DNA of 64,000 nt from the NCBI RefSeq assembly GCF_003334355.1, contig NZ_QOWP01000005.1; one strand, given 5' to 3'. The translations under genes and the position numbers were made by a program. Positions 35,766-50,688 of this stretch are shown piece after piece. The notes beneath the pieces were generated by a model, which did not search any database, was not told the origin of the DNA, and saw only the letters and a list, made by a program, of their open reading frames with translations. Source of the DNA: Escherichia coli (lineage in GTDB: Bacteria > Pseudomonadota > Gammaproteobacteria > Enterobacterales > Enterobacteriaceae). Within the stretch, counting starts at the first letter, position 1, and each line of letters starts with the position of its first letter.

Positions 35766-36338
35766 TTGACACTGTCATCGCAACATTATCTGGTGATCAC
35801 TGCGTTGGGTGCCGATCGCCCTGGAATTGTGAACACCATCACCCGTCATGTCAGTAGTTGCGGCTGTAATATTGAAGACAGTCGCCTGGCGATGCTGGGA
35901 GAAGAGTTCACGTTTATCATGCTGCTTTCCGGTTCATGGAATGCCATTACTCTGATTGAATCAACGTTACCGTTGAAAGGTGCAGAACTGGATCTTTTAA
36001 TCGTGATGAAGCGCACGACGGCGCGTCCGCGTCCGCCAATGCCAGCATCTGTCTGGGTTCAGGTCGATGTGGCAGACTCCCCGCATTTAATTGAACGCTT
36101 CACAGCACTTTTCGACGCGCATCATATGAACATTGCGGAGCTGGTGTCGCGCACGCAACCTGCTGAAAATGAACGGGCTGCGCAGTTGCATATTCAGATA
36201 ACCGCCCACAGCCCCGCATCTGCGGACGCAGCAAATATTGAGCAAGCGTTCAAAGCCCTATGTACAGAACTCAATGCACAAGGCAGTATTAACGTCGTCA
36301 ATTATTCCCAACATGATGAACAGGATGGAGTTAAGTAA
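35766..36338 (+). CDS. gcvR: glycine cleavage system transcriptional repressor GcvR
   Basis: ORF track 35700..36338; start placed at in-frame TTG giving MTLSSQHYLVITALGADRPG (190 aa); ACT-domain protein. Confidence 0.85.
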   Translation: MTLSSQHYLVITALGADRPGIVNTITRHVSSCGCNIEDSRLAMLGEEFTFIMLLSGSWNAITLIESTLPLKGAELDLLIVMKRTTARPRPPMPASVWVQVDVADSPHLIERFTALFDAHHMNIAELVSRTQPAENERAAQLHIQITAHSPASADAANIEQAFKALCTELNAQGSINVVNYSQHDEQDGVK

Positions 36339-36808
36339 TGAATCCACTGAAAGCCGGTGATATCGCACCGAAATTTAGCTTGCCGGATCAAGACGGAGAA
36401 CAAGTTAATTTGACCGACTTCCAGGGACAGCGTGTTCTGGTTTATTTCTACCCGAAAGCCATGACCCCCGGCTGTACCGTACAGGCCTGCGGCTTACGCG
36501 ATAACATGGATGAGTTGAAAAAAGCGGGCGTTGATGTGCTGGGTATCAGCACCGATAAACCCGAAAAACTCTCCCGTTTTGCGGAAAAAGAGCTGCTTAA
36601 CTTTACGCTCCTGTCTGATGAGGACCACCAGGTGTGCGAACAATTCGGCGTCTGGGGTGAAAAGTCCTTCATGGGCAAAACCTACGATGGTATTCATCGC
36701 ATCAGCTTCCTGATTGACGCTGATGGCAAAATCGAACATGTCTTTGACGATTTCAAAACCAGCAATCACCACGACGTTGTGCTGAACTGGCTGAAAGAAC
36801 ACGCCTGA
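36338..36808 (+). CDS. bcp: thiol peroxidase / bacterioferritin comigratory protein Bcp (peroxiredoxin)
   Basis: 156-aa ORF; start overlaps gcvR stop (TAATG); peroxiredoxin active-site PGCT. Confidence 0.95.
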   Translation: MNPLKAGDIAPKFSLPDQDGEQVNLTDFQGQRVLVYFYPKAMTPGCTVQACGLRDNMDELKKAGVDVLGISTDKPEKLSRFAEKELLNFTLLSDEDHQVCEQFGVWGEKSFMGKTYDGIHRISFLIDADGKIEHVFDDFKTSNHHDVVLNWLKEHA

Positions 36809-37003
36809 TTACTCTGCTCCATTCCGTGCTGGCTGCGCTTGCGGCCAGCATACCTCACTTCTCGTGATCAAGATCACATTCTCGCTTTCCCCTGCGACAC
36901 GGGTGTCGAATCCATTTTTTGCTGAACGTTAATGACCATCATTTTTGTACCGTTCAGAATCCAGTCAATACATAACTTATTGAATATATTGAGTTAATCA
37001 GAA

Positions 37004-37019
37004 TGGCATCCTTTATGCA
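37004..37019 (+). promoter_or_regulatory. sigma-54 promoter element (TGGCATCCTTTATGCA; GG-N10-GC) upstream of hyfA
   Basis: -24 GG and -12 GC with 10-nt spacing read directly, ~45 nt upstream of hyfA ATG; consistent with hyfR encoding a sigma-54 activator. Confidence 0.65.
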
Positions 37020-37060
37020 ATATGAAATGCAATGTTTCATATCATTTTCAAGGAGCCGAC

Positions 37061-37678
37061 ATGAACCGCTTTGTGGTGGCCGAACCACTGTGGTGTACAG
37101 GATGTAATACCTGTCTCGCTGCCTGTTCGGACGTGCATAAAACGCAAGGTTTACAGCAACACCCGCGCCTGGCCCTGGCGAAGACGTCAACAATCACTGC
37201 CCCTGTCGTGTGTCATCACTGTGAGGAAGCCCCTTGCCTGCAGGTCTGCCCGGTCAATGCCATCTCTCAGAGGGATGATGCGATCCAACTCAACGAAAGC
37301 CTCTGTATTGGCTGCAAGCTTTGCGCCGTGGTCTGCCCATTTGGCGCAATCAGCGCTTCAGGAAGCCGTCCGGTGAATGCCCATGCGCAATATGTTTTTC
37401 AGGCTGAAGGCTCACTCAAAAACGGCGAAGAAAACGTGCTGCCCCAACATGCGTTGCTGCGCTGGGAACCGGGTGTCCAGACCGTCGCGGTGAAATGCGA
37501 CCTGTGTGATTTCTTGCCAGAAGGTCCGGCCTGCGTTCGCGCTTGCCCGAATCAGGCGTTACGGCTGATCACCGACGATAGCCTGCAACGTCAGATGAAA
37601 GAAAAACAGCGCCTTGCCGCAAGCTGGTTTGCCAATGGCGGGGAGGATCCCCTTTCCCTCACTCAGGAGCAACGCTAA
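37061..37678 (+). CDS. hyfA: hydrogenase-4 ferredoxin-type subunit HyfA
   Basis: ORF track trimmed to MNRFVVAEPLWCTGCNTC (205 aa); multiple 4Fe-4S Cys motifs. Confidence 0.92.
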   Translation: MNRFVVAEPLWCTGCNTCLAACSDVHKTQGLQQHPRLALAKTSTITAPVVCHHCEEAPCLQVCPVNAISQRDDAIQLNESLCIGCKLCAVVCPFGAISASGSRPVNAHAQYVFQAEGSLKNGEENVLPQHALLRWEPGVQTVAVKCDLCDFLPEGPACVRACPNQALRLITDDSLQRQMKEKQRLAASWFANGGEDPLSLTQEQR

Positions 37679-47776: not shown

Positions 47777-47805
47777 GAAGGATTTCTCATTAATAAGGAC
47801 TGTTG

Positions 47806-49818
47806 ATGGCTATGTCAGACGAGGCGATGTTTGCCCCGCCGCAAGGAATAACAATTGAAGCGGTAAACGGAATGCTCGCGGAGCGGTTAGCGCAGAAACA
47901 CGGTAAGGCGTCTTTATTACGCGCCTTCATCCCGCTGCCGCCGCCGTTCAGCCCGGTACAACTTATTGAACTGCATGTTCTCAAAAGCAACTTCTATTAC
48001 CGCTACCATGATGATGGCAGCGATGTGACGGCAACAACAGAGTATCAGGGCGAGATGGTCGATTATTCGCGTCACGCCGTCCTTCTCGGCAGTAGTGGAA
48101 TGGCGGAGCTACGCTTTATTCGCACCCACGGCAGTCGTTTTACTCCCCAGGATTGCACACTGTTTAACTGGCTGGCGCGGATAATCACCCCGGTTCTGCA
48201 ATCATGGCTCAATGATGAAGAACAGCAGGTGGCGCTGCGTTTGCTGGAGAAAGATCGCGATCATCATCGGGTACTGGTTGATATTACTAATGCAGTGCTG
48301 TCACATCTTGATCTCGACGATCTGATCGCTGACGTCGCTCGTGAGATCCATCATTTTTTCGGTCTGGCTTCAGTCAGTATGGTACTGGGCGATCATCGAA
48401 AGAACGAGAAGTTTAGCCTGTGGTGCAGCGATCTTTCTGCCTCACATTGTGCGTGTCTGCCACGCAATATGCCTGGCGACAGTGTATTGCTGACACAAAC
48501 GCTACAAACCCGACAACCGACCTTGACGCACCGTGCAGACGATCTGTTTCTCTGGCAACGCGACCCGTTATTACTCTTACTTGCATCTAACGGCTGCGAA
48601 TCTGCGCTCCTTATACCGCTTACCTTTGGCAACCATACACCGGGTGCATTGTTGCTGGCGCATACCTCTTCCACTCTCTTTAGTGAGGAAAACTGCCAGC
48701 TACTACAACACATAGCCGATCGCATCGCTATTGCCGTTGGCAATGCCGATGCCTGGCGTAGCATGACCGATTTGCAGGAAAGTTTGCAGCAAGAAAACCA
48801 CCAGCTTAGCGAGCAGCTCCTTTCGAATCTGGGCGTCGGTGACATTATCTATCAAAGCCAGGCAATGGAAGACCTGCTCCAGCAGGTAGATATTGTGGCG
48901 AAGAGCGACAGTACAGTGTTGATTTGTGGTGAAACCGGAACCGGCAAAGAGGTGATCGCCAGAGCGATCCATCAACTTAGCCCGCGACACGACAAGCCGC
49001 TGGTCAAAATCAACTGCGCTGCCATCCCCGCCAGTCTTCTGGAAAGTGAGTTATTCGGTCATGACAAAGGGGCGTTTACTGGTGCGATTAATACCCATCG
49101 TGGTCGTTTTGAAATTGCCGATGGCGGCACGTTGTTTCTCGATGAAATTGGCGATCTGCCGTTAGAACTTCAGCCTAAACTGCTGCGCGTATTGCAGGAA
49201 CGGGAGATTGAGCGTCTCGGCGGGAGTAGAACGATCCCGGTGAATGTCAGAGTCATTGCCGCCACCAACCGTGATTTGTGGCAAATGGTTGAAGATCGCC
49301 AGTTTCGCAGCGATCTCTTTTATCGCCTGAATGTCTTCCCACTGGAATTGCCGCCGCTACGCGACCGTCCGGAAGATATCCCTCTTTTAGCAAAGCATTT
49401 CACGCAAAAAATGGCGCGCCATATGAATCGTTCAATTGACGCCATCCCGACCGAGGCGCTACGCCAGTTGATGTCGTGGGACTGGCCGGGCAACGTGCGC
49501 GAGCTGGAAAACGTGATTGAGCGAGCGGTACTGCTGACTCGCGGTAACAGTCTGAATTTACATCTTAATGTCCGACAAAGCCGTTTACTGCCGACGCTAA
49601 ATGAAGATTCAGCGCTTCGCAGTTCAATGGCGCAGTTGCTGCACCCGACGACGCCAGAGAATGACGAAGAAGAACGTCAGCGCATTGTTCAGGTATTGCG
49701 AGAAACCAATGGCATTGTTGCCGGGCCCCGTGGCGCGGCGACACGATTAGGGATGAAGCGCACCACGCTGCTGTCACGAATGCAGCGTCTGGGGATCTCG
49801 GTTCGCGAGGTGTTGTAA
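47806..49818 (+). CDS. hyfR: sigma-54-dependent transcriptional activator HyfR (FhlA-like)
   Basis: ORF with GAF-like N-terminus, AAA+ domain ([14 protein letters not shown]) and C-terminal HTH. Confidence 0.92.
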
Positions 49819-49839: not shown

Positions 49840-50688
49840 ATGAGCAACAAACTCTCTTTCGACTTGCAGTTGAGCGCCAGAAAAGCGGCAATCGCTGAAC
49901 GGATTGCCGCCCATAAAATTGCCCGCAGTAAAGTGTCGGTCTTTTTAATGGCGATGTCCGCTGGCGTGTTTATGGCGATCGGATTTACTTTTTACCTTTC
50001 CGTTATCGCCGATGCCCCGTCTTCACAGGCATTAACCCATCTGGTGGGCGGCCTTTGCTTTACACTCGGCTTTATTTTGCTGGCGGTTTGCGGCACCAGC
50101 CTGTTCACCTCGTCGGTAATGACGGTGATGGCAAAAAGTCGGGGCGTTATTAGTTGGCGAACTTGGCTGATTAACGCACTTCTGGTGGCCTGCGGTAATC
50201 TGGCAGGTATTGCCTGTTTCAGTTTGTTAATCTGGTTTTCCGGGCTGGTGATGAGTGAAAACGCGATGTGGGGAGTCGCGGTTTTACACTGCGCCGAGGG
50301 CAAAATGCATCATACATTTACTGAATCTGTCAGCCTCGGCATTATGTGCAATCTGATGGTTTGCCTGGCGCTTTGGATGAGTTATTGCGGGCGTTCGTTA
50401 TGCGACAAAATCGTCGCCATGATTTTGCCCATCACCCTGTTTGTCGCCAGTGGCTTTGAGCACTGTATCGCCAATTTGTTTGTGATTCCGTTCGCCATTG
50501 CCATTCGCCATTTCGCCCCTCCCCCCTTCTGGCAACTGGCGCACAGTAGCGCAGACAATTTTCCGGCACTGACGGTAAGCCATTTTATTACCGCCAATCT
50601 GCTCCCGGTGATGCTGGGTAATATTATCGGCGGTGCAGTGCTGGTGAGTATGTGTTATCGGGCTATTTATTTACGTCAGGAATCCTGA
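49840..50688 (+). CDS. focB: formate channel FocB (FNT family)
   Basis: 282-aa polytopic ORF. Confidence 0.92.
   Translation: MSNKLSFDLQLSARKAAIAERIAAHKIARSKVSVFLMAMSAGVFMAIGFTFYLSVIADAPSSQALTHLVGGLCFTLGFILLAVCGTSLFTSSVMTVMAKSRGVISWRTWLINALLVACGNLAGIACFSLLIWFSGLVMSENAMWGVAVLHCAEGKMHHTFTESVSLGIMCNLMVCLALWMSYCGRSLCDKIVAMILPITLFVASGFEHCIANLFVIPFAIAIRHFAPPPFWQLAHSSADNFPALTVSHFITANLLPVMLGNIIGGAVLVSMCYRAIYLRQES

Follow-up and report, generated by a model that had tools for sequence, protein, structure and literature searches.

The analysed stretch of DNA, 64,000 nucleotides long and referred to below as the window, carries the E. coli hyf operon for hydrogenase 4, preceded by bcp and closed by hyfR and focB (Table 1). 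The 255-bp stretch that follows the bcp stop codon (36809-37063) is 100% identical to that of E. coli ATCC 8739 and is matched in 5,423 of 5,426 complete E. coli genomes; in 4,298 of those, the full stretch adjoins an annotated hyfA gene. In about 1,125 of the 5,426 genomes, the match ends approximately 50 bp after bcp and the hyf promoter is missing, which indicates that roughly one in five sequenced strains lacks the operon. An in-frame ATG at 37022 is an artefact of ORF calling. The FhlA-like activator HyfR, noted at the operon end in the first reading of the sequence, is indeed encoded there. Its top NCBIfam match is the FhlA model, with 642 bits against an equivalog cut-off of 830, a shortfall to be expected of a paralogue; NifA/NorR/NtrC-type models are matched as well.

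Table 1. Features of the bcp-hyf region (positions in the window; distances relative to the transcription start)
Feature	Position	Strand	Remarks
bcp (thiol peroxidase)	36338-36808		upstream neighbour of hyfA
CRP/FNR-type hybrid site CGTGATCAAGATCACA	36863-36878	.	centre at about -160; from the alignment
Candidate HyfR/FhlA enhancer (UAS), CGACACGGGTGTCG dyad	36895-36908	.	centre at about -130; putative assignment
Conserved block GAACGTTAATGACCATCATTTTTGT	36924-36948	.	-107 to -83, 25 bp; putative function
IHF-like site TAACTTATTGAAT (complement of WATCAANNNNTTR)	36973-36985	-	centre at about -52; putative
Sigma-54 (-24/-12) promoter of hyfA, TGGCATCCTTTATGCA	37004-37019	+	sequence, published ChIP-seq motif, gSELEX, conservation
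Start-site palindrome ATATGAAA-TGCAATG-TTTCATAT	37020-37042	.	-11 to +12; 22% G+C
Transcription start (+1) of the hyf operon	37030-37031	+	published prediction and reported primer extension
hyfA ribosome-binding site AAGGAG	37050-37055	+	seen in the sequence; kept in orthologues
hyfA (hydrogenase 4 Fe-S subunit)	37061-37678	+	ATG at 37061
hyfR (FhlA-like sigma-54 enhancer-binding protein)	47803-49818	+	operon end
focB	49840-50688		after hyfR

The sigma-54 promoter and its upstream region

The element in front of hyfA is PhyfA, the sigma-54-dependent promoter of hyfABCDEFGHIJR-focB, and is thus real and already known rather than new: its -24/-12 sequence, its distance to hyfA, the upstream position of bcp, and the hyfR-focB pair at the operon end are all identical to those of the described E. 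coli promoter. The GG (37005-37006) and GC (37017-37018) dinucleotides lie 10 nt apart in the arrangement TGGCAT-CCTTT-ATGCA, so the first-pass annotation was correct in assigning an RpoN promoter with GG-N10-GC geometry. The pattern TGGCAYN6TGCW has a single match in the window as compared with 1.06 expected from shuffled sequences, i.e., it occurs at chance level, and certainty about the promoter therefore derives from its position and from published data, not from the match. The 17-mer ATGGCATCCTTTATGCA is the intergenic sigma-54 ChIP-seq site OS23 (hyfA), with a PSSM score of 10.5 and flagged in EcoCyc as experimentally confirmed (PMC4591121). The bcp>hyfA spacer is also among the strongest RpoN-holoenzyme gSELEX peaks, at 92-100% of the maximum, and becomes the strongest once NtrC is added (PMC8743547). 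Occupancy by sigma-54 is thus given by sequence identity to the sites bound in ChIP-seq (OS23) and gSELEX, and a cognate AAA+ enhancer-binding protein, HyfR, is encoded by the same operon. Expression of hyf is reported to depend on sigma-54, HyfR, and FhlA (Skibinski et al. 2002, J Bacteriol 184:6642). In a paper predicting AtoC targets, hyfA is given just as a sigma-54 promoter. A natural variant is found in strain YPE12, where the -24 element bears a GG>GA substitution at 37006, a change that, judged by the sequence, should inactivate the promoter.

Upstream of the core element, the E. coli region has been aligned with the E. fergusonii and Citrobacter promoters that share the bcp-hyfA arrangement, six promoters in all, and conserved islands are found within otherwise diverged DNA. 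The most distal one is the CRP/FNR-type site, whose GTGAT-N4-ATCAC core is kept across genera in six out of six promoters; according to FNR ChIP-seq data, hyfA belongs to the predicted FNR sites that are unoccupied in vivo (PMC3688515). Next comes the CGACAC-N2-GTGTCG dyad, kept in E. fergusonii and Citrobacter, and then the block from -107 to -83, which is nearly invariant in the six divergent promoters and is possibly a second part of the enhancer. Since the hycA-hypA enhancer of MG1655 is filled with the same TGTCG/CGACA motifs, the activator sites appear to lie at the expected upstream place and not at the palindrome. The expectation that enhancer-type sites would sit about 100 bp upstream is borne out to the extent that the dyad and the conserved block resemble the hyc/hyp FhlA enhancer. 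The IHF-like site matches eight of the nine specified consensus positions (by eye), and at the same position Citrobacter sp. NCU1 has a perfect match to that consensus. PhyfA shares with the hycA and hypA promoters the sigma-54 class, the TGTCG/CGACA motifs of its candidate enhancer, and the FhlA/HyfR activator family, but hycA and hypA have no dyad over the start site, and the sequences downstream of their -12 elements are unrelated to that of PhyfA.

A palindrome centred on the transcription start

In sigma-54-dependent promoters, transcription starts about 12-13 nt past the GC dinucleotide. A primer-extension start 30 bp upstream of hyfA was reportedly found by Skibinski et al. in 2002; in the window, it would presumably fall at 37031. 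The published prediction, 19 bp downstream of the motif centre and 31 bp before hyfA, corresponds to 37030 (PMC4591121). The centre of the palindrome, at 37031, coincides with this start; the first-pass annotation rightly placed the palindrome after the -12 element and ahead of the hyfA ribosome-binding site.

This sequence had been described as a near-perfect palindrome. An inverted-repeat search gives two arms, ATATGAAA (37020-37027) and TTTCATAT (37035-37042), complementary at eight of eight positions and separated by the 7-nt spacer TGCAATG; the 21-mer TATGAAATGCAATGTTTCATA (37021-37041) noted initially is thereby extended by one base on each side. The arms are perfect, but the spacer is asymmetric, so that 16 of 23 positions are symmetric and the term is too strong for the whole. 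An 8-bp inverted repeat with a spacer of at most 12 nt arises somewhere in the 252-bp intergenic region in 5.1% of dinucleotide shuffles, and one spanning the start-site position in 0.4%. Over the whole window, there are 24 such repeats as compared with 12.5 expected, while the motif TGAAA-N7-TTTCA occurs once against an expectation of 0.09. A DNA cruciform or hairpin was considered and set aside as energetically unremarkable (-4.6 kcal/mol for single-stranded DNA, z = -0.9). No description of a palindrome at this start site has been found in the literature searched, which did not include Skibinski et al. 2002. The heptamer ATGCAAT is present twice, 12 bp apart, at 37016-37022, overlapping the -12 element, and at 37028-37034, overlapping +1.

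Among the 4,298 E. coli genomes that bear hyf, 3,735 have the same sequence over the 60 bp that run from the -24 element up to the ATG. For the 60 bp directly upstream, this number drops to 1,178, and about 1,300 genomes are too diverged there for megablast. The frequent polymorphisms of the promoter-leader segment are confined to the outer left arm, namely A37020T, the outermost position (294 genomes, O157:H7 included), and T37021A (119 genomes), whereas at least 96% of the 4,298 genomes preserve the core ATGAAA/TTTCAT; the core is thus kept, but constraint on the complete 8-bp symmetry is not strong. When metagenomes were scanned with the promoter and the ribosome-binding site as anchors, 74 contigs were recovered, of which 69 carry the reference allele, two T37021A, one the E. 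fergusonii type, and two low-coverage indel variants. Neither the 4,298 genomes nor the 74 contigs contain alleles that are intermediate with respect to the palindrome. Strain GF4-3 has a 5-bp AATGC duplication at 37027/28, so that its palindrome has a spacer of 12 instead of 7 nt; the duplication also lengthens the ATGCAAT repeat.

The nearest orthologous promoters, those of E. fergusonii, Citrobacter spp., two enterobacterial loci, Kosakonia, and Phytobacter, retain the sigma-54 element, at an unchanged distance from the ATG. TGAAA-N7-TTTCA is absent from all of them, and none has a Watson-Crick repeat of 5 bp or more at the start site; loci of the Atlantibacter group bear an unrelated GC-rich 6-bp repeat within a much longer leader. 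As far as the sequences go, the perfect palindrome is specific to E. coli, and what the relatives carry in that register is a degenerate quasi-palindrome. The best imperfect dyad of E. fergusonii, C. amalonaticus, and the loci L057 and L058, for example AACAAGAC-N5-GTTTTGTT, lies exactly in the E. coli register, centred on +1, and register 24 ranks first in E. coli and in L056, L001, L057, and L058. As compared with these relatives, E. coli has changed both arms at three reciprocal pairs (2/22, 4/20, and 5/19). In an alignment of 13 promoters, 75% of the cells are paired under the E. coli scheme versus 46-62% in slid registers. The covariation of this scheme was matched by 10 of 500 shuffles, within the range given by the tool for unconstrained trees; it is suggestive and, by the tool's own calibration, not significant. 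When independent substitutions were simulated from the sequences of the relatives, the fraction of trials with a perfect 8-bp dyad was about 2 × 10^-4 for that register and about 2.5 × 10^-3 for any register, a rarity that is notable but, given the many intergenic regions surveyed, not compelling.

Operator, hairpin, or product of a template switch

The palindrome may be explained in several ways, and to the one we prefer we would give an even chance: the sequence would be an AT-rich segment that melts upon activation, its symmetry perfected by a template-switch mutation, with no regulator of its own. RNA polymerase-sigma54 would sit as a closed complex on the GG and GC of PhyfA; HyfR or FhlA would bind about 85-135 bp upstream and reach the polymerase through a bend made by IHF at about -52; the activator would then spend ATP to open the DNA from approximately -10 to +2, and transcription would begin at 37030/37031, giving an unstructured 30-nt leader with a strong ribosome-binding site. 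The palindrome would be a DNA-level feature centred on +1, and an older quasi-palindrome, visible in the relatives, would have been made perfect by a replication template switch and not by selection.

The low frequency of the perfect dyad under independent substitution favours a concerted event, and the imperfect repeat of the relatives, in the same register and with reciprocal differences in the arms, is what a template switch would start from. Template switching is documented for quasi-palindromes of E. coli, and the correction of imperfect inverted repeats by this route has been put forward both as a general process in that species and as the cause of the over-abundance of perfect short inverted repeats in its genome (PMC5941160). 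The corrected quasi-palindromes described so far (PMC5941160, PMC7202029, PMC8794818) are similar to that of hyfA in having short arms, a short spacer, and imperfect counterparts in relatives. What distinguishes the hyfA locus from them is that intermediate alleles are not seen in the genomes and contigs covered, and the template switch is a putative event. The reciprocal pattern itself is produced by two processes, i.e., by selection for symmetry or by a single template switch that copies one arm from the other, and selection for the dyad would leave the same compensatory changes. Two further observations speak against a purely mutational origin: the dyad axis falls on +1, which is improbable by chance in view of the shuffles, and the promoter-leader segment is conserved far above the adjacent upstream DNA. 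To these may be added that hyf is notoriously silent in E. coli, a silence that an operator at +1 could help to explain; Self et al. are said to have described it in 2004.

These objections lead to the proposal that a dimeric repressor, perhaps one specific to E. coli, has its operator in the palindrome. Bound over -11 to +12, such a repressor would block open-complex formation or promoter escape and so contribute to the silence of hyf. We regard this as possible, if unlikely. The position is classic for an operator, with a perfect 8-bp dyad exactly on +1; its motif is unique in the window, its core is preserved in nearly all E. coli genomes that bear hyf, and its symmetry has been retained through reciprocal changes. 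However, the half-sites are not conserved in the E. fergusonii, Citrobacter, and Kosakonia promoters, whose architecture is otherwise common to them and E. coli, which makes a conserved operator for a conserved regulator unlikely; polymorphism in the segment peaks at the outer positions of the arms, and the motif, with its single occurrence in the window, is lacking at hycA and hypA. By eye, against consensus sequences, the palindrome misfits NikR (GTATGA-N16-TCATAC) and KdgR (TGAAA-N5-TTTCA) in spacing or half-sites, and likewise Cra, TyrR, CRP, and FNR; the NsrR half-site, the TorR box, the CytR octamer, and the PhoP/ArcA repeats give no convincing fit either. In the literature searched, the motif string is not mentioned and no regulator is described at the hyfA start site; nothing on the start-site region was found there in connection with ChIP-exo at hyfA or with several anaerobic and metal regulators, and the only transcription factors mentioned in a gSELEX overview bind within the hyf operon. 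Sigma-70 operators located at start sites, such as lac O1 and the LexA boxes, share with hyfA a dyad overlapping +1, but the hyfA half-sites are not conserved in orthologues, the promoter is sigma-54-dependent, and no cognate protein is known. To our knowledge, repressors acting at the start site have rarely been described for sigma-54-dependent promoters. In a more elaborate version, which we consider improbable, the E. coli repressor would clamp the tightly bound sigma-54 closed complex and would be one reason why hydrogenase 4 is silent; the symmetry would have been selected and kept through reciprocal substitutions, and related hyf operons that lack the palindrome, e.g., that of Pectobacterium, would be active.

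The alternative to a DNA-level feature is an RNA hairpin. The first-pass annotation had suggested one in the 5' leader of the mRNA made from PhyfA, and this suggestion fails. A 25-nt RNA with both arms transcribed would fold at -6.0 kcal/mol (z = -3.6), but the start at 37030/37031 falls in the loop, so that the hyf mRNA has the right arm only, and the leader (37031-37075) folds worse than shuffled sequence (z = +1.65), as expected for efficiently translated leaders. No Rfam family matches the palindrome region, and a sigma-70 scan has revealed no promoter on the plus strand that would transcribe the whole palindrome. We consider a hairpin of this kind hardly credible.

A different case is that of transcripts reading through from bcp, since these would contain both arms. 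In such RNA only, the dyad could act as a hairpin, serving as a weak terminator or insulator or blocking hyfA translation; in the latter case, GGCAUCCUU from the -24 region would additionally pair with the AAGGAGCC Shine-Dalgarno sequence, and transcripts started at the sigma-54 promoter, devoid of the left arm and of the anti-Shine-Dalgarno sequence, would escape. Some read-through is plausible because the GC-rich hairpin right after the bcp stop (36826-36851; -26 kcal/mol for its 70-nt context, z = -4.2) is strong and has no U-tract, and may thus be an inefficient terminator. Apart from one bulge, GGCATCCTT (37005-37013) of the -24 region is complementary to AAGGAGCC (37050-37057), and this pairing would, by sequence, occlude the ribosome-binding site in read-through RNA. 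The palindrome hairpin nests in the helix so formed, with folding energies of -16.9 kcal/mol for 37004-37075 and -20.7 kcal/mol for 36990-37075 (z about -1.7 to -1.8). The dyad of the relatives, moreover, needs G.U pairs, valid only in plus-strand RNA, and is followed by U-rich sequence. Against this, the stem is weak and AU-rich (-6 kcal/mol), the tail CAUUUUC is poor, a terminator scan did not call it, and no Rfam family matches; the z-scores are marginal, and the energies improve little on those of shuffled sequences. A purine-rich left arm and a T-rich right arm yield G.U pairing without selection. Both segments of the anti-Shine-Dalgarno pairing are invariant in the group of E. coli, E. 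fergusonii, and Citrobacter, and hence provide no covariation in its favour. Among the relatives, hairpin potential shows no association with a co-directional bcp upstream: Kosakonia and Phytobacter have bcp and no hairpin, and the locus L061 has the hairpin without bcp. A conserved hairpin has been rejected as firm evidence: the per-sequence folding p-values are 0.03-0.1 for the nearest clade and 0.2-0.8 for the other promoters, and once G.U pairs are barred, E. coli and the locus L064 are the only ones to stand out. A role of the palindrome in read-through RNA is thus quite improbable.

We infer, then, that the AT-rich segment has no dedicated binding factor and that its perfect symmetry probably goes back to a template switch. 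The promoter adds nothing new, and what is of interest at PhyfA is a possible function of the palindrome over +1. Were the palindrome an operator, it would represent a rare case of a repressor acting directly at the start site of a sigma-54 promoter and provide a handle on the long-standing puzzle of the intact but silent hydrogenase-4 operon of E. coli. If it is a template-switch product, it would be a tidy natural example of how perfect promoter palindromes arise without selection, and a caution against taking every start-site dyad for an operator. The YPE12 and GF4-3 strains each provide a ready-made test allele.

Divergence and possible decay of the operon

Divergence is much greater in the hyf operon than in the neighbouring bcp gene. 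HyfA of E. coli is only about 70% identical to its counterparts in E. fergusonii and Citrobacter amalonaticus (loci L001, L056, and others), whereas Bcp, encoded at the same chromosomal site in the same genomes, is 95-98% identical; this difference suggests an allele replacement or very fast evolution. HyfA proteins of intermediate identity (between about 96% and 70%) were not found in the genome collections searched. Apparent protein-cluster matches at 84-87% were considered as bridging orthologues and rejected, as they proved to be frameshifted E. coli alleles behind the same promoter; the cluster members displayed were from E. coli only. Frameshifted hyfA alleles, with a 143-aa product, are present behind an unchanged promoter and palindrome in some E. 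coli Logan assemblies (L053, L054, and L055), as would fit with an operon that decays from time to time.
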